From Candidatus Aenigmatarchaeota archaeon (lineage in GTDB: Archaea; Aenigmatarchaeota; Aenigmatarchaeia; Aenigmatarchaeales; JACQIB01): a stretch of 64,000 bases of DNA. Positions 6,131-56,695 of this stretch are shown here, piece after piece. The notes under the pieces are model-generated. The model saw only the letters and a list, made by a program, of their open reading frames with translations, ran no database searches and was not told the origin of the DNA. The position numbers were made by a program, and so were the translations under genes. The stretch's first letter is position 1; the number at the start of each line of letters is the position of its first letter. The DNA lies in the NCBI GenBank assembly GCA_043799675.1, contig JAZDNN010000024.1, forward strand, positions 7,418 to 71,417, read 5' to 3'.

Positions 6131-6218
6131 TGGAGCCTCGGGAGGGAATTGCACCCTCGACCTGCTGTTTGCTTGGTTGCTTACAAGACAGCCGCTCTTC
6201 TGCCTGAGCCACCGAGGC
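6131..6218 (-). tRNA. tRNA-Thr(UGU) with a 12-nt mini-intron
   Basis: 88 nt.
- Acceptor: GCCTCGG/CCGAGGC.
- D arm: GCTC-AGGCAGAA-GAGC.
- Anticodon stem: GCTGT/ACAGC. The loop is CUUGUAA after removing a 12-nt intron (6170..6181; central helix CUUG/CAAG, bulges UAA and CAA).
- T arm: GAGGG-UGCAAUU-CCCTC, with an atypical G at position 55.
- CCA is encoded. Confidence 0.8.
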
Positions 6219-13547: not shown

Positions 13548-14774
13548 ATGTACAGTATGAAAAACCCGAATTTGGTTGAGGCGGCCACCAAACCCGATAT
13601 AAGGTTCAACCCGAAGCGCTACACGTATAGTGTAGACCATCATTACTTCAAGATGTGGACGCCTCAAATGGCGTATATTTTAGGGTTCGTGTTTGCGGAC
13701 GGCGGAATAGAAAGGAACAATACGACCCTTGCCTTTGAGTTGCAGATGCGGGATAAAGAGATTTTACGAAAAATAAGAGCGGCTCTAAAATCTACCCATC
13801 CGATTTCAGCGACCAAAGCAGGCGAGTATGTACGATTACGGATCAATAGCCGTCAAATAGTTGACGATTTGAAGAAGCTTGGAGTAACGCATAATAAAAG
13901 CAAAGATTGCACATGTCCAGATATCCCTCAGCGGCTGTTGCCGCACTTCGTGAGAGGGTTCGTGGACGGTGATGGCTGGATTATTCAAAGAACCGGCAAT
14001 AACAGACATGAAATAAGCGCGGGTTTCTGCCATGGTTCTAAGGGGTTCCTTAGATCGCTGGTAAATCAGATTCGAGCGGCGCTTGATATCAAGGCATTTA
14101 ATCTACGGGCTAAGTATAAGGCAACTAGCAGCGGCAAGAGGTCGTGCACATATAGCATAGAATGGTATTCACACAACGCGTCGAAATTTTTAGATTGGAC
14201 ATACAAAGACGCAGACATCTTCTTGAAAAGAAAATACCAAAGCTATCTGAGAAGCAAACGGCTTTTTGAGGAGTTTTCTTCAAAAACGCGGCTTTGGAGA
14301 AAGGTCGAAACCAAACACAGAATGCCGCTAAGAGCCATCCTCGACGGCATGTTGGCCCGGGGTTCGAGCACCTGTCAGATTTCGGGGAATGTCGGAGTTT
14401 CATCGGCTACGATTTACAGGTGGTTAGACAAAACTGACATAAGGAAACCGGTGAAGAGGGTGTCCAAAGCGCCTGTTCTCATGAAGTGCCAGACCTGCGG
14501 TGACATTTTCAGAAAGTTTAAAGAAAACGCCAGCTATTGCTCACTTTCCTGTGCGGCGAAACATATGGCAGTTTCTAGATTGTCTGGGAACAACGTCACG
14601 TGCGCTGCATGCGGTAAACGTGTTTATAGGCCGAACTGGTGGTTTGCGATAAACAGTCGCGCCTTCTGTTCCAATAGTTGTCACGGGAAATGGCAAGAGA
14701 CCCGTTTGGCGACCAATTCGCTGCAACGCTGCAGGACCGATGGCCGCTTCCTTCCTGCTTCAGGGAGGCTATAG
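13548..14774 (+). CDS. free-standing double-motif LAGLIDADG endonuclease-like protein with C-terminal HTH and zinc ribbons
   Basis: 408 aa.
- Two LAGLIDADG motifs (YILGFVFADGG and FVRGFVDGDGW).
- An HTH (QISGNVGVSSATIYRWLDK).
- Two Cys clusters (CQTCG...CSLSC and CAACG...CSNSCHGKW). Confidence 0.7.
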   Translation: MYSMKNPNLVEAATKPDIRFNPKRYTYSVDHHYFKMWTPQMAYILGFVFADGGIERNNTTLAFELQMRDKEILRKIRAALKSTHPISATKAGEYVRLRINSRQIVDDLKKLGVTHNKSKDCTCPDIPQRLLPHFVRGFVDGDGWIIQRTGNNRHEISAGFCHGSKGFLRSLVNQIRAALDIKAFNLRAKYKATSSGKRSCTYSIEWYSHNASKFLDWTYKDADIFLKRKYQSYLRSKRLFEEFSSKTRLWRKVETKHRMPLRAILDGMLARGSSTCQISGNVGVSSATIYRWLDKTDIRKPVKRVSKAPVLMKCQTCGDIFRKFKENASYCSLSCAAKHMAVSRLSGNNVTCAACGKRVYRPNWWFAINSRAFCSNSCHGKWQETRLATNSLQRCRTDGRFLPASGRL

Positions 14775-17688: not shown

Positions 17689-18927
17689 ATGGTTTTAACC
17701 AAGTACGACCGCGGACTGCTGGAAATGATGTACCTGCTCACGAGGAAGCAGAGCCACATGAACCCTTCGGGGGTGGCAAGATACCTTTCCGAGCAGGGCA
17801 TACGGGTGACGGACAGGACAGTGAGGAGATGGTTCAACTACCTCCAGACGCACCGTTTCGACTACTTCCCGTACCCGAAATTCAAGGCGATGGGCCTCAC
17901 TCCCGTGTGGGTTTTCACGGATTTCAACGAAAAAATACTTGAAGCGATTCCACACAAGGTGGCAATAGTAAGCGGATTCGACCTCAGGAACCTCGAGAAA
18001 CGCCTGCTGGGCCTTTACTTGGTTCCGACGGAGCGGCTGAAGGATTTCAGTAAATTGTGGGCGGATGCCGTGGACGCAAAGGCGTTGAGCTTCTGCCAGC
18101 TGCTTGAAGTGGGCTCAATCAACTCCTTCTATTCGCCCTTCCACAAGCTGGTTGACCGTAACGGCATCGCCGACTTCGTGGATGACCACGAGCCGGACAA
18201 TTCCTACTTCACGGACATGCTGCGGAAGAGCACCGGCACGGAAAGCAGTGCCGGGATGAGCCCGCGCATATGCAAAAACCCGCTGATAATCCCGGTAATA
18301 TGGGAATCGTTCAGGAAGAACGCGTCGTCGCAGAAGATATGGAACTCGTTCGAAAGGAGGGCGGGTAAAGCCGCATGGGATTACATAAACAACCCGAAGG
18401 TGAGGAGAGAAAAGAAGACCGGATGCGGGATAAGGCACGTGCAGAACACCATGAGGGAGATGCAGGACAATTTCGGCGAGTTCTTCCAGCAGATGAGAGT
18501 GTCATACAATCCCCTGTACACGCACCACAACAGCATGTTCTATATGCTGCTGAAGCTGAAAAGAAGGGAAGACATCGTGCCGCTCTCGGAACTGCTCTCC
18601 AAACAGGCAATCTCAATCGTGGCGTACCCGCCCAGGGACGCGAAGAGCAGCCTGATGATGTACTACATCCTCACCAATGCCAAGGAAAGCGTCAATATCA
18701 TCAGCGACCTCATACAACCGTACATCGACAAGTCGTTCGACAACAGGATAATCACGGAGGACTTCAAGGGAACGGCGAAATACAGGAACCCGAACATGCG
18801 TCACTGGAAGGAGAACTACATGATGTCCTGCTACCACAAGCTGTTTGACCCCGTGACATGCACGTGGAAGTTCGATACCAAGGCGTACGCCAAAAAGCTG
18901 AACGCTGCCGGCATCAGACAGGGCTGA
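17689..18927 (+). CDS. hypothetical protein with N-terminal winged-helix/HTH
   Basis: Start taken at MVLTKYDRGLLEMMYLL (an alternative ATG lies at 17647). The N-terminal HTH is GVARYLSEQGIRVTDRTVRRWFNYL. The remaining 370 aa or so are unrecognised. Confidence 0.5.
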   Translation: MVLTKYDRGLLEMMYLLTRKQSHMNPSGVARYLSEQGIRVTDRTVRRWFNYLQTHRFDYFPYPKFKAMGLTPVWVFTDFNEKILEAIPHKVAIVSGFDLRNLEKRLLGLYLVPTERLKDFSKLWADAVDAKALSFCQLLEVGSINSFYSPFHKLVDRNGIADFVDDHEPDNSYFTDMLRKSTGTESSAGMSPRICKNPLIIPVIWESFRKNASSQKIWNSFERRAGKAAWDYINNPKVRREKKTGCGIRHVQNTMREMQDNFGEFFQQMRVSYNPLYTHHNSMFYMLLKLKRREDIVPLSELLSKQAISIVAYPPRDAKSSLMMYYILTNAKESVNIISDLIQPYIDKSFDNRIITEDFKGTAKYRNPNMRHWKENYMMSCYHKLFDPVTCTWKFDTKAYAKKLNAAGIRQG

Positions 18928-20335
18928 TGTTCTTCTCCAGCAGCTTGCAGATGAAGACGCGGAAATCCGGAGGAAGTTTTGATAGCATTGTGATAACCGG
19001 GGCACCGCTGGCAACGGTTGATTTCAAAAGGGCAGATGCTATGTGGCTCGGCATTCCTTTGCCCAAAAGAACATGCTCGGGCTGCGCAAAGAACGATTTC
19101 AGGTAATCCAGGGCGACCGTGTGTTCCCTCTCCGTTTCGGTGACCCAGCAGTCCTTCTCTATCCAGCACTTCTTCTCCCTGTAATGCTCCAAAAAGGCCT
19201 TTGCCTGCTTGTGCGACCAGATGGTCGGGCCGACGTGCTTCACCACCCGAGGAACCTGCCACACCTCGAGCTCGAACAGCAGGATGCAATCCTTTCCGTC
19301 CGCCCACACGTCCCTCCTGAGCACGCGGAATCCGCCGTCCGCCAGGAGACCTTCCAGGGAAGCGGAGGCCTTCCGCATCTGCGGCCACAGGGTATCATCC
19401 ACCAGATTCATCGGACGGTCGAACCTGACAAGGTACCAGCGGGTGCGCCTCCTTGCTATGGCTGCAGCCACTTCCTTCACGCTGTACGGCCTGGCGCGGG
19501 GAGGGAAGAACCACTTCTGATGGGGCAACAAAATGAAATCCCTGCACGCCCTGGCAAAAGCAAAGAAGCTGTCTGCCGAGACCGCCGCGGCAACGTTGCG
19601 GTTCGGGTCCACCGGATCTATCACCATCATGGGGGCGCGGAACTTCTCCAAAGCGGCCTGATAATCAACGGCCTTCCGCTCAAGGTCTATCAGGAGGCCT
19701 GCCTCCCATTTCTGCGCCTCGGCCGCGCAGCGGGCAAAACTGCCGTAATGAATGGCAAGCAACTCGCAAAGGTAGCCGGAGAAGCCCTGCGTCTTCACGT
19801 CGGCGCCATAAGCTCCTGCAGCTTTTGCGAAAGCCTTGATGAGCCTCGCGGTGTCGGACAGGTCCGGAGTGAAACGCTTCTTGATATAGGAAACGTGGTG
19901 CGGGGTCCTATCGACCGCGGACTTTATCCTCGACGGATCGGGAACGTCATACGCGGGCACGACGTCTATCGCATAATCCAGCTTTCCCGACTTCATCGAG
20001 CCGCGGAGGTAGGGATGCTCGGCATAGGCTATCTCCCACTTGCCGTTGAGGGTGGAAATTATCTTCTTCGCGAGGTCAAGCCCCTTCTTCTCAAACTCTT
20101 CCCGGCTGACGGCGGGATTGAAAAGCAGGAACAGGTCGAACTCGCGCTTTCCGGCAAGCCAGGTGCCCTTCTCCACCGAGCCGCACATCACGGGCACGGC
20201 CGTGTTTCCCGCTATCTTTGAGGCGACCTGCATCACGGCATTCACGGCCGATTGCATGGCTGACTGGTCGGAAGCGGAGGGGCGTATTTTCTTCAGAACG
20301 GAAGTAAGGACCTTCTCAACCGGCTGCGCTGGCAT
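18914..20335 (-). CDS. cca: class I (archaeal) CCA-adding tRNA nucleotidyltransferase
   Basis: Inner ATG at 20335 gives 473 aa. It has GSVEKGTWLAGKREFDLFLLF (the nucleotidyltransferase G[SG]...D.D motif), EHPYLRG, VDVVPAY and DRTPHHV. Confidence 0.85.
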   Translation of the reverse strand: MPAQPVEKVLTSVLKKIRPSASDQSAMQSAVNAVMQVASKIAGNTAVPVMCGSVEKGTWLAGKREFDLFLLFNPAVSREEFEKKGLDLAKKIISTLNGKWEIAYAEHPYLRGSMKSGKLDYAIDVVPAYDVPDPSRIKSAVDRTPHHVSYIKKRFTPDLSDTARLIKAFAKAAGAYGADVKTQGFSGYLCELLAIHYGSFARCAAEAQKWEAGLLIDLERKAVDYQAALEKFRAPMMVIDPVDPNRNVAAAVSADSFFAFARACRDFILLPHQKWFFPPRARPYSVKEVAAAIARRRTRWYLVRFDRPMNLVDDTLWPQMRKASASLEGLLADGGFRVLRRDVWADGKDCILLFELEVWQVPRVVKHVGPTIWSHKQAKAFLEHYREKKCWIEKDCWVTETEREHTVALDYLKSFFAQPEHVLLGKGMPSHIASALLKSTVASGAPVITMLSKLPPDFRVFICKLLEKNISPV

Positions 20336-20381
20336 ACCTTTAATTGACAGCCTATAAATAAAGGCTAAGGAAAGATTCGGT

Positions 20382-20813
20382 ATGCTGGTCTCGGAAGTGA
20401 TGAACAAGCGGGTCAGGACCTGCCGGAAGGACGACACTGTCCGCCAGGCAGCGCAGGAAATGAACAAGTGGCACATAGGGAGCCTGATCGTGGTGGACGG
20501 CCCGGGAAAGGTCATAGGAATAATAACGGAGAGGGACATCCTGACCGAAGTGGTGGCCAAAGGCCTGCGGAGCGATGACGTGGATGTCAAGGAAATAATG
20601 ACCGGAGACGTGATAGAGGTCGAGTCCAGTGCCACCCTTGAGGATGCGGCCGAGATAATGACACTTAAAAAAATAAAGAAGCTGCCGGTGGTGAGGAAGG
20701 GGCAACTGGTCGGCATCGTGACGGCGACCGACCTGATAATGTACGAGCATTCGCTGATAGAAAAAGTGTCAACCCTGCTGCAGACCGGAAAAAAGGCCGC
20801 TGTGTGCGGCTAA
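20382..20813 (+). CDS. CBS-domain pair protein
   Basis: 143 aa with two CBS motifs (VIGIITERDIL and LVGIVTATDLI). Confidence 0.8.
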   Translation: MLVSEVMNKRVRTCRKDDTVRQAAQEMNKWHIGSLIVVDGPGKVIGIITERDILTEVVAKGLRSDDVDVKEIMTGDVIEVESSATLEDAAEIMTLKKIKKLPVVRKGQLVGIVTATDLIMYEHSLIEKVSTLLQTGKKAAVCG

Positions 20814-24842: not shown

Positions 24843-24903
24843 CTGAAAACAATTGCCTTTTGGCGGGAAAGCATAAGCTTAAAAGGGTTAACGGAGGATA
24901 GCG

Positions 24904-47801: not shown

Positions 47802-47921
47802 TAACCCACCATCAGTTTAATTCGCTGCGGCGTAATAGCTCCATAAAAGGTTATAAAGCTATTGGACTGGCGCAAGGCATTTCACGACCGGTCATTTAAG
47901 AGCCGGAAAACAAAGCTGCTC

Positions 47922-48353
47922 ATGCCGAAGTTCAGGTTCATTCCCGAGATAGCGATAGCTGATGTAGCCTTCGAAGCGGAAGGTAAGGACATCAATGAGC
48001 TGTTTGTGAACTGCGCCCTTGCAACCGAGGAATCCATGGTCAACACAAAGAAGGTGAAGCCGAAGGTCAGCAAGACCATAAAGCTGGAAGCGGATGCGCT
48101 GGACAGACTGATGATTGACTGGCTGAACGAGGTGATTTACTACAAGGACGCGGAGGGGCTGCTGTTTTGTGAATTCATCGTCAAGGTATTGCAAAAGGGA
48201 AAGAACTGGACGCTTGAAGCCACGGCAAAGGGCGAAAAGAGGGACCCGAAGAAGCACGAGCTCAGGGCGGATGTGAAGGCGGCGACTTGGCACCTTTTTG
48301 AACTGAAGCAGGAAAAGGGCAAGTGGAAAGCGAGGATTGTAGAGGATATCTGA
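47922..48353 (+). CDS. archease (RtcB activator)
   Basis: ATG at 47922 gives 143 aa. It has IADVAFEAEGKDINELF, KAATWHLFEL and the overall length typical of archease. It lies 1.9 kb upstream of rtcB. Confidence 0.75.
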   Translation: MPKFRFIPEIAIADVAFEAEGKDINELFVNCALATEESMVNTKKVKPKVSKTIKLEADALDRLMIDWLNEVIYYKDAEGLLFCEFIVKVLQKGKNWTLEATAKGEKRDPKKHELRADVKAATWHLFELKQEKGKWKARIVEDI

Positions 48354-48362
48354 TTACAACGC

Positions 48363-49196
48363 TTAGCTGCGTATTCCGCGGATTGTCCCTGTCGTGAACA
48401 CATTGTTGCCCTGGTCGACGTAATCTATCCGCACCGACACGCTGTACGGGTCCCCTGCGTTGCCGTTATTTCCCCGGCCGACATACCATGCGCTGTAATC
48501 GGGTTCCAGAGTTGGCGCGTTGATGTTGCTCAATAACGTTCCGTTCAGGGATACCAAGGCAATAGTTATAGCGTAATTGAAATGGGAATTCAGCAGGAGC
48601 ATCCTGAAAGTGCCGTTATGCGAGTAATCTGCATCGATCACGTCTATGCTGCCGAAATCGGATATCATCTTCGGCGTGCATGCCTGCGATTCCTGCGGTT
48701 TTGTATTATTCAGACCGCACGAAGCGGCATCAACACACGTACGCGTCTGCATCGCATTGGCGCCGCAAACCGACCACGCGCTGCACTGCCATACCGGGGC
48801 GCACGTGCATGCATCGCTTTCGGATGGCTTGCCTACGGTCGTCCCGCAGTGGTTCGAATCGCTGCACGTCCTTGTCTGGGTTCCCCCGACGCACAGGGAC
48901 CACGCACCGCAATACCAGTTCGGCGTACAATGGGTCACCTGCGCACAGCCGTTGGTTTCCTCCGGCCTGCCCGTGTTCGTACCGCAGGAGTTCTCATCAA
49001 CGCACGTCCTGGTCTGGACTCCGGAGACCGAGCATGCGCTCCATGCGCCGCACTGCCAGTCCGGCGTGCATACAGCTGGTGTCGGTTCGGGTTCAATCGG
49101 CCTTACAATAAACTGCATGACGAATACCAACGCAAGCGCGATGAGCATCAGGGACAATATCAGGATGACGGCGTTTTTGCTTCCGAATTTCAGCAC
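48363..49196 (-). CDS. membrane-anchored protein with three TSP1-like cysteine repeats (tandem paralog 1)
   Basis: 277 aa. An N-terminal TM anchor is followed by three copies of C-T-P-x-W-x-C-G-A-W-S-x-C-x3-G-x-Q-T-R-T-C-x-D-x-N-x-C-G-x5-P-x-E-x3-C and a beta-rich C-terminal domain. Confidence 0.6.
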   Translation of the reverse strand: MLKFGSKNAVILILSLMLIALALVFVMQFIVRPIEPEPTPAVCTPDWQCGAWSACSVSGVQTRTCVDENSCGTNTGRPEETNGCAQVTHCTPNWYCGAWSLCVGGTQTRTCSDSNHCGTTVGKPSESDACTCAPVWQCSAWSVCGANAMQTRTCVDAASCGLNNTKPQESQACTPKMISDFGSIDVIDADYSHNGTFRMLLLNSHFNYAITIALVSLNGTLLSNINAPTLEPDYSAWYVGRGNNGNAGDPYSVSVRIDYVDQGNNVFTTGTIRGIRS

Positions 49197-49260: not shown

Positions 49261-50127
49261 TTAGCTGCGCTCTCCGGAAACCGTTCCGGTAACTGAAAAC
49301 CCGTTACTGCCGCTATCCAAGTATGTCATCGTTACAGCGAGGGTATATGGATCTCCAACGTGGCCATTCACTCCCATGGTATTTGTGCCTGTCAGCCATA
49401 CCCTTTCCAGAGGGAATAAGTTCATGGGCACGTTCATGGATGGTATTTGTAAACCGTTGACGCTTACAGACGTAATGCTGATGGTATCGCCAACCCTGTC
49501 CTCCACCCACAATTTTAACGTACCATTTGCAGCGTAATCGACATCCAGCACACCTATGTTCGTGAAGCCGCTGATTGTCTTGGGAGTGCAGGTCTGTGAT
49601 TCCTGCGGTTTGCTTGTCGTTGTCCCGCAAGAATTCGTGTCAATGCATGTTCGCATCCGCGTTCCGCCGGCACCGCACGCGGACCATGCATCGCATTGCC
49701 AGTTAGGAGTACATGTACATGGTTGTGTTTCCAAAGGCCTGTCGCTAAACAGATTGCATCTGTTTGCATCCGTGCATACCCTGCTCTGATTTCCCGAATT
49801 ACTGCAATTGGTCCATGCACTGCACTGCCAGTCAGGCACGCAGGGTGGCGTGCAGAACTGGGTTTCAACAGGCTTGTTATAATTCACGCTGCAGGAATTC
49901 GCATCTATGCATGTCCTTGTCTGCGTTCCTGAAGCGGAGCATGCATTCCACGCCCCGCACTGCCAATCAGGCGTGCATACTGGGGGCATCAGAGGCCCAC
50001 TTGGCTTAATCAGGGATTGCACAATATACAACGATGCAAGCGCAACGATTATTACAGCCAGAACCAAGATAATGACGTTTTTCTTTTCGGATTTAGGCAC
50101 ACCTATTTTCTTTTCTGACTTAGGCAC
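49261..50127 (-). CDS. membrane-anchored protein with three TSP1-like cysteine repeats (tandem paralog 2)
   Basis: 288 aa with the same architecture as 48363..49196. The N-terminal PKSEKK is duplicated. Confidence 0.6.
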   Translation of the reverse strand: MPKSEKKIGVPKSEKKNVIILVLAVIIVALASLYIVQSLIKPSGPLMPPVCTPDWQCGAWNACSASGTQTRTCIDANSCSVNYNKPVETQFCTPPCVPDWQCSAWTNCSNSGNQSRVCTDANRCNLFSDRPLETQPCTCTPNWQCDAWSACGAGGTRMRTCIDTNSCGTTTSKPQESQTCTPKTISGFTNIGVLDVDYAANGTLKLWVEDRVGDTISITSVSVNGLQIPSMNVPMNLFPLERVWLTGTNTMGVNGHVGDPYTLAVTMTYLDSGSNGFSVTGTVSGERS

Positions 50128-50210: not shown

Positions 50211-51795
50211 ATGGAGCAGGAACCTGAAAAGCAGACAGGCAGTCTGCCGAAGGAAATCAAGAAAATCAGCGAGGTCGTCTGGGAACTGCCCACCAGCTAC
50301 AAGAAAGGCATGCGCGTGCCGGCAAGAATATATGCGACCAAGAAGCTGCTCGATGCGATGGACGCGGGAGTGTTCGAGCAGGTCACCAACGTCGCGACCC
50401 TGCCGGGAATCGTCAAGCATGCGTTCTGTATGCCGGATGGGCACTGGGGTATGGGTCAAGTCGCGGCTTGATTCACTCAAATATGGGTTCCCAATCGGCG
50501 GCGTGGCTGCATTCGACCCGAAGGTCGGCGTGATCAGCCCGGGCGGCATCGGGTTCGACATCAACTGCGGCATGAGGTTCGTCACTACCAACCTTACTGT
50601 CAAGGACGTCAAACCCAAGCTGAAAGAACTGGTGGATATCCTGTTCAGGACGGTTCCCGCGGGCGTGGGCGGGGAAGGGTTTGTAAAATTAAGCCGCAGC
50701 CAATTCGACGAAATAATGGTCCAAGGGGCCAATTGGGTCATCGAGCACGGCTACGGTTGGAAAGAGGACACGGAAAGAATAGAGGAGTACGGCTGCATCA
50801 AAGGTGCTGATCCGTCAAAGGTCAGCGACAAGGCAAGGACCAGAGGCATCACGCAGATGGGGACGCTCGGCTCAGGGAACCATTACCTGGAAATCCAGAC
50901 TGCCGAGAAAATTTTCCTTCCCGAAGTCGCAGAGGCATTCGGCGTGAACGAACAGGGGCAGATAGGGGTGATGGTGCACTGCGGCTCGAGGGGGTTCGGC
51001 CACCAAATCGGAACGGATTATCTCAGGATATTCGACATGGCAATGAAGAAGTACAACATCACGGTGCCTGACAGGGAGCTTGCCTGTGCGCCTTTTGCGA
51101 GCCAGGAAGGACAGGATTATTATCACGCGATGGCCTGCGCGGCAAACATGGCTTTTGCCAACAGGCAGGTGATTTTGCACAGGATACGCGAGGCTTTTGC
51201 AAAGGTGTTCAGGAAATCCCCCGAAGACATGGAAATGCACCTGGTGTACGATGTCGCGCACAACGTGGCCAAGGTGGAGAAACACCTGGTCGACGGTCAT
51301 GAAAAGGAACTGGTGATGCACCGGAAGGGGAGCACGCGCTGCTTCGGTCCGGGTAGGCCGGAGATTCCTGAAGCTTACCGCAAGGTCGGCCAGCCGGTGA
51401 TTGTGGGCGGCAGCATGGAAACGGGCAGCTTTTTGTGCGTGGGCACGGACAAGGCTCTGACAGAAACATGGGGAAGCACCATGCACGGCGCGGGCAGAAC
51501 CATGAGCAGGACTTCAGCGAGGAACCAGGGCTCGGGCTTGGCGTTGCAGAAGAAGATGGCCAAGGAAGGGATACTGGTGGAAGCCACGAGCATGAGCGGG
51601 CTTGCAGAGGAAGCGGGCTTTGCCTACAAGGACCTGAACGAAGTGGTCGAGACCATGGAAATCGCGGGCGTGAGCAGGAAGGTCGTTCTGCTGAGGCCTT
51701 TGGGTAATATTAAAGGCACCGCCCGGGCCTCATACAGCCTTTTAGCTTTCCCCATACTTGTCATGGTCTTGGCCTTGATTTCGTCCCTTATCTGA
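50211..51795 (+). CDS. rtcB: RNA-splicing ligase RtcB, coding sequence interrupted by a 31-nt BHB intron (exon 1 50211..50450, exon 2 50482..51795)
   Basis: - Exon 1 (80 aa) ends ...LPGIVKHAFCMPDGHWG.
- Exon 2, in another frame, starts YGFPIGGVAAFD...GGIGFDINCGMR, and HCGSRGFGHQ and further motifs follow.
- Joining at 50450/50482 recreates the universal MPD.H.GYGF.IGG motif.
- Unspliced, the first frame stops at 50469-50471 after 86 aa.
- The C-terminus carries a hydrophobic extension of about 25 aa after the usual ...IKG end. Confidence 0.85.
50451..50481 (+). other. predicted bulge-helix-bulge (BHB) intron within the rtcB mRNA
   Basis: - Central helix: UGGG (50445-48) / CUCA (50476-79).
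- Bulges: GUA (50449-51) and AAU (50480-82), each 3 nt.
- Inner helix: 9 bp, UGGGUCAAG/CUUGAUUCA, with loop UCGCGG.
- Cleavage after the 2nd bulge nucleotide on each side removes exactly the 31 nt needed to restore the frame. Confidence 0.75.
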
Positions 51796-52859
51796 ACGAT
51801 AAGCGGTTCGACCTGTTTCCACCTCGTGATGTTCTTGCCGATTATTTCGAGAATCAATTCCTTTTTGGCCGTTTTCTCGGGATGCCTCAACGGCAGCAAT
51901 TCGAGCATCCGACGGACATCGGCCTTCCTGAAGATTTCTAAGGCGAAATAATCCTTGCTGTATCTTATACTGACCCCATGAGTGTCTCTGCCGTCCCCGC
52001 GCCTGAAAATCCTGTATAGAATTGGATTAAAGCCCTGTTCCCTTAGTTGCCGTTTTATCCTACCAAGCAAGGTTTTATTTTCGGTGCCTATCCGCATACA
52101 ACACTGCAAATTTTCCCTGATTTTCTTGACCAGAAGCGACCCTTCCGCATCGAAGTAGCCGGCCAGGAACGACAGGAAAACATTCCGTTCGGATTCGACC
52201 AACTCTGAAATCAATCGTTTCCTGTTTTCCAGCAAGAGGAAGTCGAAGCTGTTGTCGAGGTCTGCGGATGTCGTCCACATGTAATTTCCAAAAGTTCTGT
52301 TCTTCGCAGGATATGTCCTTACCTTCGCATATCCTTTGAACAGGCTCTCGAAGACATCCAGGAATCCTTCATGAGTCGTGTTGGTTATGGCCCGAATGGT
52401 ATGCTTCGATCTTCTGAAGGCTGTCACATCACCCTCCACGAAACCAACCATGTAAGCCTTTTCTTCATCCTTTCCATCAAAACTTTGCCGTTCATGTTTC
52501 CTGTTTGTCAGCAGGATAGCCTCATCGTTTCCACGCACCCGAAAGCCGTTTTCTTCCAGCACCTTATGCAACGTGCCTTTGGAAGAACCAAATTTCTTGG
52601 CCAGCTTTTTCAACGATATTTTCTCCGTGTCATAAAGTCTCAGAATTTCCGTCACAGGCAGGTGTTTCCTGTGAGACAACGAATGTGCCTGACTGAGATT
52701 CCTTATCGGTATGTCAAGTTTGATGAACCGTTTTCTTACGGCCGACCACGATATATCGTCTCCGAGCTTAACACTCAATATCGCCGCCACTTCTTTGAAC
52801 GTCTTACCGGACGAATAGAGACTCTCGGCTTCCTTCAGGAGTTCGCTGTTCAGCTTCAT
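51624..52859 (-). CDS. LAGLIDADG endonuclease-like protein with N-terminal HTH domains
   Basis: 411 aa. There are two N-terminal HTH-like segments (GKTFKEVAAIL and ISLKKLAKKFGSSKGTLHKVL), then LAGLIDADG motifs (YMVGFVEGDVT and FLSFLAGYFDAEGS). It lies directly downstream of the DGR RT. Its last 172 nt overlap the 3' end of rtcB on the opposite strand. Confidence 0.65.
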   Translation of the reverse strand: MKLNSELLKEAESLYSSGKTFKEVAAILSVKLGDDISWSAVRKRFIKLDIPIRNLSQAHSLSHRKHLPVTEILRLYDTEKISLKKLAKKFGSSKGTLHKVLEENGFRVRGNDEAILLTNRKHERQSFDGKDEEKAYMVGFVEGDVTAFRRSKHTIRAITNTTHEGFLDVFESLFKGYAKVRTYPAKNRTFGNYMWTTSADLDNSFDFLLLENRKRLISELVESERNVFLSFLAGYFDAEGSLLVKKIRENLQCCMRIGTENKTLLGRIKRQLREQGFNPILYRIFRRGDGRDTHGVSIRYSKDYFALEIFRKADVRRMLELLPLRHPEKTAKKELILEIIGKNITRWKQVEPLIVQIRDEIKAKTMTSMGKAKRLYEARAVPLILPKGLSRTTFLLTPAISMVSTTSFRSL

Positions 52860-52914: not shown

Positions 52915-53991
52915 CTAATCATGCAGAATACATCCAAAAATATTATTATACCTTCCAGCGAGCGCATTTCTCAACCTGAACGTGTCGCCCTGCGCCGCAT
53001 AGGCCATCCAGCCCTCAAGGCTTTTCGCAGCCTGTTCTGCCGAAATCTCACCGGATTCGTACTGCAGTCTGAGTGCCGTCATCCTTTTTTCGAGCTTCAG
53101 CAGGTTCCTCCTTTTTGGAATCCTGTAGTGGTAGAACACCCTGAAGCCGAGCAACGATATCCCCTTATGCAAAGGGTAGACCTGCGATTTTTCCTCATGC
53201 AACTCTAGCTTTAACCGTTGTTTGAGGAACCCGTTTATCCCGCTCCTGAACTGCATCAGCGCGGCCTCAGACCTGTCCAGAATCACGAAGTCATCTACAT
53301 ACCGGAGATAGAACCTTGCCTTAAGCACGTGCTTCACGAAATGGTCCAGCTCATTCAGGTAGACGTTCGCGAAGAACTGGCTCGTCTGATTGCCTATCGG
53401 CATCCCCTTCGGCAGGGCAGGGTCGTTGTTCGACAGGATTTTCCGTACCAGCCAGAGCACGCTTTCGTCCCTTATTTTTCTCCGTATGATGCCAATCAGG
53501 ACATCGTGGTCGACGCTCGGGAAATAGTGCCTTATGTCGGCCTTCAGTGCATAGCCGACCACCATGTTGTTGTCCTTCGCGCCGTGCACCAAACGGCCGT
53601 TCCCGGAAACCTTTCGCTTGAAGCAATCAAACCTGTCCAATGCTGCCAGGCCGCCCTTTCCCTTCCTGTTGGCGTAGCTGTCGTGGATGAACGTTTTGTC
53701 GAAAATCGGTTCGAGCACGTTGCATAACGCATGATGGACAACACGGTCCCTGAAATGCGAGGCATGAATTACCCGTGTCTTGGGGTCGCGGATGATGAAC
53801 CGTTTCAACGGGCGCGGCGAATACGTACGATTTTCAAGCTCAGTTTTCAAATCTGCCAATTCGCCATCAAGATTAGCTTCGAATCTTTTGACATACCATT
53901 TCTTCGACTTGCCCTTCCTCGCCTTTCTGAATGCCAGCAAAAGGTTCTCTGGCGAGCAGACCTTTCCGTAAAGGTTGTCAAATGTTTTCAA
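52915..53991 (-). CDS. DGR-type reverse transcriptase
   Basis: 358 aa with an apparent TTG start. RT motifs 1-7 include RVIHASHFRDRVVHHAL, the DGR-diagnostic PIGNQTSQFFANVYLNELD (I/LGxxxSQ) and the catalytic YLRYVDDFVIL. It has no maturase or endonuclease domains, and it sits 30 nt downstream of the TR. Confidence 0.85.
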   Translation of the reverse strand: MKTFDNLYGKVCSPENLLLAFRKARKGKSKKWYVKRFEANLDGELADLKTELENRTYSPRPLKRFIIRDPKTRVIHASHFRDRVVHHALCNVLEPIFDKTFIHDSYANRKGKGGLAALDRFDCFKRKVSGNGRLVHGAKDNNMVVGYALKADIRHYFPSVDHDVLIGIIRRKIRDESVLWLVRKILSNNDPALPKGMPIGNQTSQFFANVYLNELDHFVKHVLKARFYLRYVDDFVILDRSEAALMQFRSGINGFLKQRLKLELHEEKSQVYPLHKGISLLGFRVFYHYRIPKRRNLLKLEKRMTALRLQYESGEISAEQAAKSLEGWMAYAAQGDTFRLRNALAGRYNNIFGCILHD

Positions 53992-54040
53992 AAATATCCC
54001 CTATCGGCGGCCCGTGCTATTGGCGCAGACCCCGTTGTCA

Positions 54041-54073
54041 TTCAGGCTTCCCGCCAAAAGGCAATGAGGAAGT
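54041..54073 (-). other. TR intron 3 (33 nt, predicted BHB)
   Basis: Sense-strand layout: CAGG | AAA | CUUCC-UCAUU-GCC-UUUU-GGC-G-GGAAG | CCUG | AAU. That is a perfect 4-bp central helix CAGG/CCUG, 3-nt bulges and a 5-bp inner helix. Confidence 0.75.
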
Positions 54074-54098
54074 TTCCTGTTCGAGGGCCTGTTCGCAT

Positions 54099-54129
54099 TT
54101 ATGCCGGCGGAACGTTTCCTTCCAACCGT
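54099..54129 (-). other. TR intron 2 (31 nt, predicted BHB)
   Basis: Sense-strand layout: AUGC | GAA | CGGU...GCCG | GCAU | AAA. That is a perfect 4-bp central helix AUGC/GCAU, 3-nt bulges, and an inner helix CGGU/GCCG enclosing a GGAA-ACG-UUCC hairpin. Confidence 0.7.
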
Positions 54130-54145
54130 TCGCATTGAAGCACCC

Positions 54146-54162
54146 TTGACGGCCCGAAGGCT
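54146..54162 (-). other. TR intron 1 (17 nt, predicted BHB)
   Basis: Sense-strand layout: GACG | AGA | GCC-UUCG-GGC | CGUC | AAG. That is a 4-bp central helix GACG/CGUC, 3-nt bulges, and an inner GCC/GGC helix with a UUCG loop. Confidence 0.7.
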
Positions 54163-54436
54163 CTCGTCCGTGTTCCAATCCGACCTGACGGAAGGGTTTC
54201 GGTAGCCTCTCCACCGACATGACACCGCGGCTTCAATCTTCGGGAACCTACCAACTGAAACCGCTGAATTTAATGGCACAAGCATTCGGACGGCATGAAA
54301 TGCCATCGCACCATCTTGCGCTCTATGGAAAGGCGTATAGCGCGGGCCTTTGCCGGGAGAATGAAATACCCGCCCCCCGATTGGGAAGGAAAGAACTCTG
54401 TCATGCAAAAATTGAGGGACGAAACGATTTATGCGC

Positions 54437-55183
54437 CTATTTTGAGGTCTTAACCGCTTTTTTTGCGGCGCAGACCCCGAGGTCATGCCTGAGCGAGGGC
54501 CCGCCCGCATCCGCATCGAAGCACCCCCCGTCGGAGTGCCAAGTCGACCTGACGGAAGCCACTTCAACCGGGATTAAGGCTTCTGTTTCGATTTCTACTA
54601 TATCCAGTTTGTTGTCTTTCATCCTGTAAGAAGCCGCTTTCTGTTTGGCCAGCTTTTGGATGACCTCAAGATTATGATTCCAGTAATCGTCCATCGTTGC
54701 CTTGTATTCCTTGTCGGAATTCATCAGTTCAGCCGACTCCTGTGCCTTGAAGTGTCTTACTCCAAAGTCCAGCTTGAACTCCTCGGGTATTCTCTGATAG
54801 ACCAGTTCCTGGATTATCCTGTCCGCATTGGCGATGAACCCTTTGCGTTTATAGTCCCTGAACTTTCCTGCGTCCCCTTTGGCCATCAGGAGCGCATAGC
54901 CTTTCTTTTCAAGGTCCTTTTCCAGCCTCTTTCCGTCAATTATGGCCAATATTTCATCGACCTCTCCCAACCTTTCTTTTACAGAAAAATCATCATCAAA
55001 TATTACAGAGCCATTGTAAGCGGCCAGCTTCGAATCATACGCGCCTGCTGCACGCAGATAATCGAGAACACAGCCTTCAACAGTTACAGGCACGGCTTTT
55101 CCCGTGAACCTGAATTCCCCGTCGATAATCCTCACTTCAGGCTCGGGCATCACGACCGTTGTTATTTTGCTCATGATAATCAT
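54437..55183 (-). CDS. DGR target protein B (VR near C-terminus)
   Basis: 248 aa. The C-terminal ...SVRSTWHSDGGCFDADAGGPSLRHDLGVCAAKK is encoded by VR-B. The N-terminal 200 aa are unrelated to targets C and D. No signal peptide is seen. Confidence 0.7.
   Translation of the reverse strand: MIIMSKITTVVMPEPEVRIIDGEFRFTGKAVPVTVEGCVLDYLRAAGAYDSKLAAYNGSVIFDDDFSVKERLGEVDEILAIIDGKRLEKDLEKKGYALLMAKGDAGKFRDYKRKGFIANADRIIQELVYQRIPEEFKLDFGVRHFKAQESAELMNSDKEYKATMDDYWNHNLEVIQKLAKQKAASYRMKDNKLDIVEIETEALIPVEVASVRSTWHSDGGCFDADAGGPSLRHDLGVCAAKKAVKTSK
54467..54558 (-). repeat. DGR variable repeat VR-B (92 nt)
   Basis: Colinear with the spliced TR. There are 16 differences, 14 at TR adenines and 2 at G positions. 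Confidence 0.75.
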
Positions 55184-55186
55184 TCT

Positions 55187-55912
55187 TCAGAAGTGCTTCT
55201 TCACGACTTCGAGGTCTTTCATCAAAGCGTCATATTTCTTTGACTTTTCCAGAAGCTCCCGGTATTCGCTCTCCGCGACCTCGCACATCTTCGGAAGCTC
55301 GGCCTTCTCGTCCGTTTTAAGGAGGGCGCAGACCCCGTCGTCAGCCCAGTGCGAGGGCCTGCCCGCAGTCGCATTGAAGCACCCCTCGCCCGTGGTCCAA
55401 GCCGACCTGACGGAAGCTTCACCGTTTTCAAACGAGATGCTTCCCCTCCAGACCTTCTTTTTCGGTTTCTTGAACAGCCCGGCATTCACGAGTGTATCAA
55501 AGACGTCCGATTTGCTTATCCCGGCCCTTGTTCTTTTGCCGTCATATTTGAGTTCACCGTTCACTTCCTTCACGACGGGGTCGGCTATTATCTCGCCCTT
55601 CTCAAGGGCGACTTCCCTGTTGTGCAACCAATAATCAATATTCATTTTCTTGAACGACTTGTCCTCGTGCACCAAATCGTAAGAAACCTGCAACGGCAGG
55701 AGCGTGTAGCGCTCGCCGACCTTCTTTGATACTTCCTGACCGAGAAGCGTCATCTGCCTGTGGTCGAGGTTCGCCACGAGGCCATTGCCTTTGTAGTCGT
55801 TGTGCCCTTCGGCAGGACTTCCCTTCCATTTCGGGAAATACACCGTTTCCTTGCCCGTGGGCGGCACTATCTTTCCCGCTATCTCATGGACGATTTCGGC
55901 CTGTGTTACCAT
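55187..55912 (-). CDS. DGR target protein C
   Basis: 241 aa and a paralog of target D (shared ...GKETVYFPKWKGSP.EG.ND...VGERY..LP.Q.SYDLVH.D.SFKKM). VR-C encodes SVRSAWTTGEGCFNATAGRPSHWADDGVCA, followed by a helical tail of about 40 aa. Confidence 0.7.
   Translation of the reverse strand: MVTQAEIVHEIAGKIVPPTGKETVYFPKWKGSPAEGHNDYKGNGLVANLDHRQMTLLGQEVSKKVGERYTLLPLQVSYDLVHEDKSFKKMNIDYWLHNREVALEKGEIIADPVVKEVNGELKYDGKRTRAGISKSDVFDTLVNAGLFKKPKKKVWRGSISFENGEASVRSAWTTGEGCFNATAGRPSHWADDGVCALLKTDEKAELPKMCEVAESEYRELLEKSKKYDALMKDLEVVKKHF
55326..55417 (-). repeat. DGR variable repeat VR-C (92 nt)
   Basis: Colinear with the spliced TR. There are 11 differences, all at TR adenines (11 of 22 A positions changed, 0 of 70 non-A positions). 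Confidence 0.8.
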
Positions 55913-55972
55913 GAGGACAATACCACCGCAAAGGATTTAAGCGGAAGACTGAACGTAAACGGCTTGAACTAC

Positions 55973-56695
55973 TCAATCGCCGCATTCGTCCAAAGCCGCT
56001 TTCCTAAAATCCAACGATTTAGGAGGGTCCTTCAGAAACTGTTGATATTCGCTCTCCGCAATCTTGCGCACCTTCGGCTTCTCAACGGCCTTGCCCGTTT
56101 TCACGAAGGCGACAACCCCGCGGTCAGGCCCGGAGGAGGGCCAAGACGCACCCACAGCGAAGCACCCAAAACGGTTTCCCGACTTGACGGAAGAAATGCC
56201 GTCATTCTCGTAAATGATGCCCCAATCACAGACGTTGTGATTGAGCTGCTTGAACAGTTTTGCGCTGGCAAGCGTCTTTATCACGGACTCTGCGTCAATG
56301 TTCGCCTTTACGCTCCTGCAACCATCATTGAGCCTGAGCTCGCCGTCGACTTCGCTGACAATCGGGACGGAAATAACATCCCCGTTTCTCCGTATGACTT
56401 CCCTGTTGATTATCTTATAATCGGCCATCATTTTCTTGAAACTTCTGTCATTATGCACCAAATCATAACTCGTCTGAAACGGAAGTTCGGCATAACGCTC
56501 GCCCACTTTCTCGGATATCATCTGACCCAAGAACACGGACTGCCACTTATCGAGAGTCGCAACAAAACCCTTACCGTAACGATCGTTGCGTCCTTCTATC
56601 GGACTTCCCTTCCACTTCGGAAAATACGCCGTTTCCTTGCCGGTAGGCATCCTAATCTTGTCCAAAATTTCATAGACGATTTCAGCTTCACCCAT
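55973..56695 (-). CDS. DGR target protein D (degenerate VR)
   Basis: 240 aa and a paralog of target C. The VR-like segment encodes SVKSGNRFGCFAVGASWPSSGPDRGVVA. Confidence 0.65.
   Translation of the reverse strand: MGEAEIVYEILDKIRMPTGKETAYFPKWKGSPIEGRNDRYGKGFVATLDKWQSVFLGQMISEKVGERYAELPFQTSYDLVHNDRSFKKMMADYKIINREVIRRNGDVISVPIVSEVDGELRLNDGCRSVKANIDAESVIKTLASAKLFKQLNHNVCDWGIIYENDGISSVKSGNRFGCFAVGASWPSSGPDRGVVAFVKTGKAVEKPKVRKIAESEYQQFLKDPPKSLDFRKAALDECGD
56108..56193 (-). repeat. DGR variable repeat VR-D (86 nt, diverged)
   Basis: Alignable to the spliced TR, but with a 6-nt deletion, several non-adenine differences and a diverged 3' boundary (GGGGTTGTCGCC against GGGGTCTGCGCC). It is probably no longer a homing target. 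Confidence 0.55.

Follow-up and report, generated by a model that had tools for sequence, protein, structure and literature searches.

A chromosomal diversity-generating retroelement of an Aenigmatarchaeota archaeon with a template repeat apparently split by three bulge-helix-bulge-type introns

Diversity-generating retroelements (DGRs) described in DPANN archaea and in the candidate phyla radiation (CPR) combine a DGR-type reverse transcriptase (RT) with adenine-specific differences between a template repeat (TR) and a variable region (VR). The VR lies at the C-terminus of small proteins that fold like C-type lectins (CLec fold), several paralogous targets are found per cassette, signal peptides and transmembrane segments are lacking and no obvious Avd gene is present (Paul et al. 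2015, PMC4372165; Roux et al. 2021, PMC8144416). A cassette with these same traits, the lack of export signals and of Avd being an apparent one, is found in a window of 64,000 nucleotides from Candidatus Aenigmatarchaeota archaeon (GenBank assembly GCA_043799675.1, contig JAZDNN010000024.1, positions 7,418 to 71,417 of the forward strand; coordinates below are counted from the first nucleotide of this window). Unlike the DPANN and CPR systems as described, the TR DNA of this cassette is not colinear with the VRs, and three inserts framed by archaeal splice motifs interrupt it. In the account favored here, which is considered probable, the locus is a chromosomal DGR with paralogous lectin-fold targets, one of which, target D, would have escaped from its template, and the TR RNA would be spliced before being copied.

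The second group of systems to which the locus has to be compared is that of the archaeal bulge-helix-bulge (BHB) introns. Such introns occur in tRNA, rRNA and Cbf5 pre-mRNA; the tRNA-splicing endonuclease EndA excises them, and RtcB ligates the exons (Yoshihisa 2014, PMC4090602; PMC2738675). The TR inserts resemble them in their 4-bp helix, in their 3-nt bulges with a predicted cut after the second bulge base, in their affinity with the relaxed HBh' forms, in their lengths, which fall within the known range of 11-129 nt, and in their number, up to three introns per RNA being on record. They differ from them in that the host RNA would be a retroelement template (together with the RtcB mRNA in the present case) and in that the outcome of splicing would be written back into DNA. 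Moreover, the outer helix is weak in the TR motifs and the cleavage sites are predictions made from sequence alone.

On the minus strand, the cassette is ordered as target D, target C, target B, an RT-16 leader RNA, the TR and the RT, and a non-coding stretch of 445 nt separates target B from the RT gene. The TR (54022-54195, minus strand) is 174 nt long in the DNA. It starts at 54195 with CCTTCCGTCAGGTCG, ends at 54022 with GGGGTCTGCGCC, and is 81 nt longer than the 93-nt VRs of targets B and C, namely VR-B (54467-54559, minus strand, residues 209-239 of B) and VR-C (55325-55417, minus strand, residues 166-196 of C). Aligning it with either VR requires three gaps opposite segments found in the TR only. 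As delimited by these gapped alignments together with the splice motifs described below, four exons (54195-54163, 54145-54130, 54098-54074 and 54040-54022) sum to 93 nt and are separated by intron 1 (54146-54162, 17 nt), intron 2 (54099-54129, 31 nt) and intron 3 (54041-54073, 33 nt), all on the minus strand. Intron 1 is absent from VR-B and VR-C; the inserts of 17 and 31 nt each break the frame, and the three inserts total 81 nt.

Removal of the inserts leaves a TR whose sequence in the frame of the VRs is PSVRSDWNTDEGCFNANANRPSNRNDNGVCA, where AAY or GAY codons occupy the variable positions. This spliced TR matches VR-C without gaps at 88% identity. The changes affect 11 of 22 adenines and a single non-adenine base out of 71, located at the boundary; in VR-B they affect 14 of 22 adenines and 3 of 71 non-adenine bases, and neither VR shows any other kind of change. 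Used as a BLAST query, the spliced TR retrieves VR-C and VR-B each as a single ungapped match of 92 nt, and the genomic TR as separate exon pieces. Thus, the DGR rule that TR and VR differ almost only at template adenines holds at this locus only after removal of the three inserts. A 12-nt GC-rich block, GGGGTCTGCGCC, is identical in TR, VR-B and VR-C, and divergence starts right after it. The unmutated spliced junctions, taken as 28-mers across GGACGAG↓GGGTGC, ATGCGA↓ATGCGA and CAGGAA↓TGACAA (the arrow marks the exon boundary here and the predicted cut below), are absent from the DNA; likewise, none of GGAACACGGACGAG↓GGGTGCTTCAATGC, GTGCTTCAATGCGA↓ATGCGAACAGGCCC and CCCTCGAACAGGAA↓TGACAACGGGGTCT is found there.

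The boundaries of the inserts were examined against the canonical BHB layout of archaeal pre-tRNAs (Yoshihisa 2014, PMC4090602). In this layout, an exon ends with a 4-nt strand of the helix H and with two bases of a bulge. The third base of that bulge opens the intron and leads into the stem h'. At its other end, the intron closes with the second strand of h', then with the 4 nt that pair with H and with two bases of the second bulge, the third base of which is the first nucleotide of the next exon. For each insert, the TR/VR alignment allows three to four placements of the boundaries, exactly one of which gives a 4-bp Watson-Crick helix, NN↓N bulges and an adjacent stem. The resulting motifs read GACG AG↓A GCC-UUCG-GGC CGUC AA↓G for intron 1, AUGC GA↓A CGG...CCG GCAU AA↓A for intron 2 and CAGG AA↓A CUUCC...GGAAG CCUG AA↓U for intron 3. 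All three helices (GACG:CGUC, AUGC:GCAU and CAGG:CCUG) are fully Watson-Crick, the bulges (AG↓A, GA↓A and AA↓A on the 5' side) have 3 nt and are rich in A with a predicted cut after the second base, and an intron stem h' of 3-6 bp is stacked on the helix. Shuffled controls pass the same test in about 3% of the cases per insert, even with a freedom of +/-8 nt. Furthermore, when each insert is folded locally with 8 nt of flank on either side, the minimum-free-energy structure is precisely this arrangement of helix, 3-nt bulge and stem. Joining the exons at the predicted cuts yields the sequence of the VRs, with a resolution of a few nucleotides where the junction bases are adenines. In four related loci (L003, L049, L088 and L100), the junction bases are unmutated in the VRs, and the junction is therefore fixed exactly. 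An internal check is provided by two other RNAs of the window, to which the same geometry applies. The first is a tRNA-Thr(UGU) (6131-6218, minus strand, 88 nt) with a canonical 12-nt intron at position 37/38, CUUG UA↓A GCAAC CAAG CA↓A, and the second is the RtcB mRNA discussed below.

Two other approaches to the structure of the TR were dropped. The global folding energy is not informative, with a z-score of -0.84 relative to shuffles, and a generic BHB scan of the TR by itself meets a background of about 7 matches per 200 nt in shuffles, so that it is informative only in combination with the positions of the TR/VR gaps. On another hand, the hairpin of intron 3 (54048-54065, minus strand) is identical over 18 of 18 nt (ATTGCCTTTTGGCGGGAA; BLAST E-value of 2e-4 within the window) to an intergenic spot at 24852-24869 on the plus strand, located just after a gene for a small basic protein and upstream of TFB, with no obvious link to the TR.

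The significance of these motifs was assessed by comparison with related loci. RT homologues were drawn from genome and metagenome collections and their loci numbered from L001 onward. Only clean TR/VR alignments were counted; an aligner with cheap gaps gave long junk alignments, and many of the gaps seen in low-scoring loci are noise. The three insert sites are occupied alike in L001, the RT of which is 82% identical to that of the window, and in L054-L056, L016, L003, L002/L057 and L139, with insert lengths of 17-36 nt. The five closest TRs show differences at no more than about six of their 93 exon positions, and the inserts vary freely but keep their structure. The tetraloop of intron 1 is UUCG, GCAA or GUAA in the relatives. 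At the site of intron 2, conserved in 9 loci, the stem shows CG/UA and GC/AU exchanges, and the stems of intron 3 are CUUCC/GGAAG, CUUUC/GGAAG or CUUCU/AGAGG. In more distant loci, compensatory changes are also observed in the exon-intron helix H itself, with GACG:CGUC versus AACG:CGUU and, as a double change in intron 3 of L002, CAGG:CCUG versus CGAG:CUCG. Locus L139 was fetched later through a homologue of a target and had no part in forming the idea; it thus stands as an out-of-sample test. Its inserts have 21, 31 and 21 nt and its H helices are GACG:CGUC, AUGC:GCAU and CAGG:CCUG.

Covariation was counted in a MAFFT alignment of 9 TRs that had not been fitted to the structure, the structure being written from the window sequence. 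Of 180 helix cells, 98.9% pair, and 9 of the 20 base pairs show two-sided changes. None of 500 shuffles reaches the observed level, and pairing falls to 23-53% when the 3' partners are slid by 1-3 columns. Beyond the close relatives, one or two inserts with the same motif are present in the TRs of other DPANN DGRs (L004, L049, L061, L065, L011/L073, L076, L088 and L100), where the families carry either CUCG AA↓A ... CGAG AN↓N or UUCG AA↓A ... CGAA AN↓U. In L004, the junction guided by the motif turned a poor TR/VR alignment into one with mismatches at adenines only. Other DPANN DGRs (L007, L009, L010, L015, L017 and L019) have colinear TRs. When about 35 loci of bacteria or CPR were run through this pipeline, a single long match of doubtful value came out, and a scan of viral contigs with the TR pattern returned three unrelated high-GC matches only. 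Taken at the level of the DNA, the VRs are equivalent to the template minus three exact segments, each lying in a predicted BHB-like structure that is conserved and covaries, and the case made by the sequences for an intron-split TR is strong.

Two explanations of these data do without splicing. In the first one, the inserts would stay in the RNA and the RT would skip each of them by jumping across the base of its hairpin. In agreement with this idea, each insert does form a hairpin, and the survey of Wu et al. (2018, PMC5758913) explains the differences in length between TR and VR, seen in 7% of DGRs, by slippage of the RT on AAC repeats. As in the cases of that survey, the TR of the window is longer than its VRs and the indels lie beside AAC/AAT codons. 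Unlike them, the extra segments have 17-53 nt, are structured, occupy conserved sites and have covarying helices. RT jumping needs neither a 4-bp exon-intron helix nor 3-nt bulges at fixed offsets, yet this geometry is present at all three sites of the window. Other loci show it at more than 20 sites, and the inserts of tRNA-Thr and RtcB have it as well. Compensatory changes also preserve helix H, for instance CAGG:CCUG versus CGAG:CUCG. In addition, the direct repeats flanking the inserts, which could guide a jump, are no longer than 1-3 nt, and the deletions, which are exact, do not differ between VR-B and VR-C. RT jumping is therefore judged quite improbable.

In the second explanation, the repeat adjacent to the RT would be a dead relic that has accumulated insertions, and either the real, intron-less TR would be located elsewhere in the genome or the DGR would be extinct. 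Only 64 kb of the genome are visible and, as will be seen with VR-D, members of the cassette can fall from use. Against decay, the 93 exon bases have hardly changed among five close relatives, and their inserts vary through changes that preserve structure, at conserved lengths and sites. The same architecture stands beside the RT in at least 13 independent loci. The RT reading frame (52915-53991, minus strand, 358 aa; Pfam RVT_1, E-value of 3e-16) is intact and carries the catalytic motifs of the DGR clade, IGNQTSQ at residue 199 and YVDD at residue 231; its nearest relatives are DPANN and CPR DGR RTs, themselves found beside TR/VR pairs. VR-C differs from the spliced TR only at adenines apart from the boundary base, and carries the private alleles of the TR of the window, GAT, ACG and GTCTGCGCC, so matching the current template allele. 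Finally, no intron-less or second TR was found within the 64-kb window, where a BLAST search with the spliced TR matched only VR-B, VR-C and the TR exons. Altogether, the relic hypothesis has very little likelihood left.

The splicing account would involve the following steps. The host EndA would cut the leader-TR-RT transcript at six bulges, and RtcB, assisted by Archease, would join the exons. The spliced RNA alone would then be reverse-transcribed with adenine-specific errors, and the cDNA would replace VR-B and VR-C. The three proteins are proposed because of what is established for archaeal BHB splicing (PMC4090602). A cDNA deprived of introns would not find a colinear recipient in the genomic TR, and this would help to keep the flow of information one-way, from TR to VR. 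In diverged lineages the introns have been retained at the same sites, which argues that the template is not overwritten by its own cDNA.

The genes for two of these proteins are present in the window. That of the RtcB RNA ligase (50211-51795, plus strand), the putative exon-joining enzyme, contains a 31-nt BHB-type insert at 50451-50481, UGGG GU↓A UGGGUCAAG...CUUGAUUCA CUCA AA↓U, which causes a frame break. Without this insert, the gene gives one unbroken alignment to P. horikoshii RtcB across ...MPDGHWGYGFPIGGVAAFD..., with an E-value of 2e-177. The enzyme that seals BHB-spliced exons would thus itself need BHB splicing of its own mRNA. The RtcB open reading frame (ORF) also extends about 25 codons past the usual C-terminus (..IKG). 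Archease, the cofactor of RtcB (47862-48353, plus strand; Pfam PF01951, E-value of 7e-39), has its gene upstream of that of RtcB, at a distance of about 1.9 kb; some 4.6 kb separate it from the RT gene, and RtcB and Archease thus lie 2-6 kb from the RT. This adjacency to the cassette is not conserved in L139.

Several observations weigh against the splicing account. EndA was not found among the 47 ORFs of the window that were scanned. The outer exon-exon helix is interrupted in intron 1, has only 2 bp in intron 2 and is absent in intron 3; the 4-bp helix does lead into the 3' bulges (AA↓G, AA↓A and AA↓U), but the TR motifs therefore belong to the relaxed HBh' class rather than to the strict hBHBh' one (PMC4090602). 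That EndA of this organism would accept such relaxed motifs is an assumption; on the favorable side, EndA variants of DPANN archaea are reported to go with more disrupted tRNA genes (PMC5829648). The whole TR region of 241 nt folds no better than its shuffles (z-score of -0.84). The exon bases at the junctions are adenines, so that the VRs fix the length of each deletion exactly but the cut site only within a few bases, and controls in which the cut site was offset by +/-3 nt did not discriminate, in keeping with the adenine-rich junctions. At site 3 of L016, helix H has a C.A mismatch, and some inserts in distant loci do not carry a BHB motif. Lastly, splicing of the TR RNA by EndA and RtcB is deduced from DNA, just as the present activity of targets B and C is presumed from the comparison of their sequences.

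If the TR RNA is indeed spliced, this would be the first DGR found in which RNA splicing by the host comes between the template and the writing of its information into DNA, and TR RNAs would form a new class of substrates for archaeal BHB splicing, beyond tRNA, rRNA and the Cbf5 mRNA. Full-text searches, the coverage of which did not extend to Paul et al. 2017, found no literature linking DGRs with BHB introns, EndA or RtcB, and introns in the TR are mentioned neither in the archaeal DGR paper (PMC4372165), nor in a large survey (PMC5758913), nor in a review (PMC8867640). We could not find an intron-split DGR template described, and it would be new relative to the literature covered. Split TRs would explain some of the TR/VR indels of the surveys. 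DGR finders that need colinear TR/VR pairs would systematically miss split templates, and probably under-count or mis-align archaeal DGRs. A split TR also offers a simple answer to the question of how a DGR keeps its template from being overwritten, and intron-protected templates may be imagined as a design for engineered DGR mutagenesis. It may further be envisaged, as a tentative idea that we would rather doubt than affirm, that the introns are a working part of the system. They would make the TR immune to its own cDNA and place hypermutation under the host EndA, RtcB and Archease, with the ligase gene itself gated by a BHB motif, and split templates might be common in DPANN archaea. In that case, the introns would replace or reinforce the asymmetry between the initiation of mutagenic homing elements (IMH and IMH*) of bacterial DGRs.

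The three VRs appear to have had different histories. In a preliminary description of this DNA, the genes for B, C and D had rightly been taken for DGR targets, but the fact that the VRs match the template only after removal of three inserts had been overlooked. VR-C corresponds to the current template allele, as seen above. VR-B is a mosaic of an older allele in its 5' part and of the current one in its 3' part. Neither of its two interior mismatches at non-adenine bases (exon 1, positions 16 and 27) is left when it is compared with the TR alleles of L001, L054 and L056, and its 3' block matches, among the sampled TR alleles, that of the window only. This suggests that the last conversion replaced the 3' part only, or that the template changed between conversions; the mosaic would fit a partial conversion proceeding from 3' to 5'.

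VR-D (56108-56194, minus strand, 87 nt, residues 168-196 of D) departs much further from the spliced TR. Changes affect 16 of 20 adenines, together with 12 of 67 non-adenine bases, to be compared with 1 of 71 in VR-C and 3 of 71 in VR-B, and a 6-nt deletion removes two codons, including that of an otherwise conserved Trp. The deletion and the several non-adenine changes had already been noted, and both are borne out. Divergence of the 3' boundary had been reported as well. The 3' block of VR-D, GGGGTTGTCGCC, does differ from the GGGGTCTGCGCC of the resident template; it is identical to the TR allele of the sister lineage L055. It follows that an older allele survives in target D, which did not take part in the later change of the template, VR-B and VR-C. 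The earlier view that VR-D is retired is upheld, insofar as the deletion, the non-adenine changes and the foreign 3' end indicate that the resident template no longer services it. These comparisons support the idea that the last rewriting of target D predates the change at the 3' end of the template and that it would have drifted since then, still as an open reading frame. Its 3' block and its intact ORF could also be understood if VR-D, instead of being retired, were rewritten from another template of the L055 type at some other place in the genome. However, at least 8 interior non-adenine mismatches, in addition to the 6-nt deletion, are left against every sampled TR allele, and no partner of VR-D other than the resident TR is present within the 64-kb window. 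A second template is thus unlikely, and retirement is the preferred view of VR-D. A paralogue that has drifted beyond the reach of its template is a plausible end state for DGRs with several targets.

The targets themselves are encoded by tandem ORFs at 55973-56695 (D, 240 aa), 55187-55912 (C, 241 aa) and 54437-55183 (B, 248 aa), all on the minus strand; D is an intact ORF for a CLec-fold paralogue, its VR being off the current template. C and D had been described as paralogues sharing their N-terminal 150 residues. Their paralogy is clear, with 51% identity over 226 aa (E-value of 3e-70) and with D fitting into the family alignment, but the similarity is not confined to the N-terminal part and spans the full length. 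A motif, SV(R/K)S.W...GCF.A.A..PS....D.GV.A, is common to the three proteins and encoded by their VRs, as the preliminary description had recognized. From this motif and from a seemingly unrelated N-terminal region in B, it had been suggested that a VR-encoded module had spread by shuffling between the gene for B and those for C and D, taken as unrelated. Indeed, the N-terminal sequences of B and C look unlike by eye, and Pfam gives zero matches for B, C and D. The comparison of the family profiles leads to another conclusion. It aligns residues 4-200 of C with residues 71-244 of B over 167 columns, well beyond the VR, with 31% identity, an E-value of 4.5e-25 and a probability of 99.6%. The homology therefore spans the whole lectin domain, and the N-terminal region of B cannot be called unrelated; what is specific to B is its first 70 residues or so, and what is specific to C and D is an insert of about 50 aa and the C-terminal tail. 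Since one template repeatedly rewrites both kinds of gene, the likeness of their VRs needs no shuffling, which is accordingly held to be most improbable. All three targets belong to a single small lectin-fold family restricted to DPANN archaea, within which they are diverged paralogues. NCBI has the exact sequence of C on record for a MAG of Candidatus Aenigmatarchaeota. In a search of 5.8 billion proteins, the B and C/D families comprise 13-15 clusters each, the sources of which are all Aenigmatarchaeota or Nanoarchaeota by name.

Structure prediction, which had been proposed as a check for a CLec or FGE-like fold around the VR, gave a positive answer. AlphaFold models built from the family alignments have pLDDT values of 85.5 for C and 81.8 for B, and both models have the CLec/FGE-like fold of DGR variable proteins, a further argument in disfavor of shuffling. 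Structural comparison of the B model gave scores of 6.6 with CarF, 6.1 with TvpA, 5.5 with PvdO and 4.5 with Mtd. The VR is located at the 3' end of the target gene and forms the last 31 residues or so of the fold in B, C and D. In C, the VR (residues 166-196) is followed by a 45-aa tail that is modeled as a low-confidence linker and one long helix (214-240), and the AESEY motif of the tail is conserved across the C/D family; a helical tail after the VR of C and D, as pointed out earlier, is thus present. B ends 9 residues beyond its VR and has no tail. Compared with the CLec-fold DGR variable proteins Mtd (1yu0), TvpA (2y3c) and TaqVP (5vf4), the three targets are very small (about 240 aa) and lack a Pfam match; C and D add the 45-aa linker and helix after the VR, and B adds the N-terminal beta domain of about 70 aa. 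As regards localization, the maximum Kyte-Doolittle hydropathy over 19 residues is 0.47-1.10 in B, C and D versus 3.2 in two membrane-anchored neighbors. This is consistent with the reported lack of an evident signal peptide or transmembrane segment, hydropathy being a weak test in place of a dedicated predictor. This lack had been called unusual, which it is not, DPANN DGR targets having already been reported as small, domain-poor and devoid of such segments (Roux et al. 2021, PMC8144416). In this respect, small CLec-fold paralogues without export signals are ordinary and conform to the known DPANN pattern.

The non-coding stretch upstream of the TR contains an RT-16 RNA motif (Rfam RF03019; 54197-54373, minus strand), detected with 57.2 bits for a gathering score of 50 and matched over the full model (1-158). 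This structured leader abuts the 5' end of the TR. It ends where the TR begins, here and in 18 of 18 related DPANN DGR loci scanned, with or without TR introns. Given this constant position, RT-16 is the structured domain at the 5' end of this class of DGR RNA. The motif has the sequence and structure of RT-16 as published and likewise adjoins an RT gene (PMC5737381); it was published without an assigned role, whereas here it abuts a DGR template. That RT motifs belong to DGRs was raised as a speculation only (Weinberg et al. 2017, PMC5737381). The RT-16 matches vary in length from 124 to 208 nt for a 158-nt model, and the motif itself may carry insertions.

Regarding the genomic context, the genes around the cassette are housekeeping ones (Rpo4, DUF655, KsgA-like, Trm1-like, RtcB, Archease and ArgRS), and the related cassette of L139 likewise adjoins DUF655/Rpo4. 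The element is therefore chromosomal rather than viral, and the cassette is a chromosomal DGR of Candidatus Aenigmatarchaeota archaeon. Its membership of the DGR family rests on the RT, on the adenine-specific relation between TR and VR once the inserts are removed and on the CLec-fold targets. Between the targets and the RT, no ORF of at least 60 aa that might encode Avd was found apart from spurious overlaps, no dedicated Avd profile having been applied to the small ORFs.

Some observations were made on related cassettes and on other genes of the window. In nine related DPANN DGR loci (L037, L039, L040, L091, L117, L122, L124, L126 and L128), the RT reading frame is broken at one place, corresponding to residues 188-195 or so of the RT of the window, with 5-130 extra nt. 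A quick scan for BHB motifs at these breaks gave nothing consistent; they could be another class of introns, programmed frameshifting or pseudogenes. Close homologues of target C are encoded in L137 (3001-3732; P0002) and L138 (3001-3738; P0008) directly downstream of a tyrosine integrase gene, and no RT is encoded less than 3 kb away. These genes may be orphan targets, targets served from a distance, or components of an element that has integrated. In the window, the RT is directly followed by an ORF with a LAGLIDADG domain and a helix-turn-helix (51624-52859, minus strand), which overlaps the 3' end of the convergent RtcB ORF by about 170 nt and is without counterpart in the related cassette L001. 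Between Archease and RtcB, two paralogues at 48363-49196 and 49261-50127 (minus strand) each have an N-terminal membrane anchor and three Cys-rich repeats (CTPDWQCGAWSxCS...TRTC); they are without Pfam match and also form diverged direct repeats at the DNA level. The CCA-adding enzyme (18914-20716, minus strand, 600 aa) is covered by Pfam over its second and C-terminal domains only (288-559), its 280 or so N-terminal residues being unmatched. Lastly, a second ORF with a LAGLIDADG domain (13548-14774, plus strand) adjoins and overlaps the gene for uracil-DNA glycosylase.

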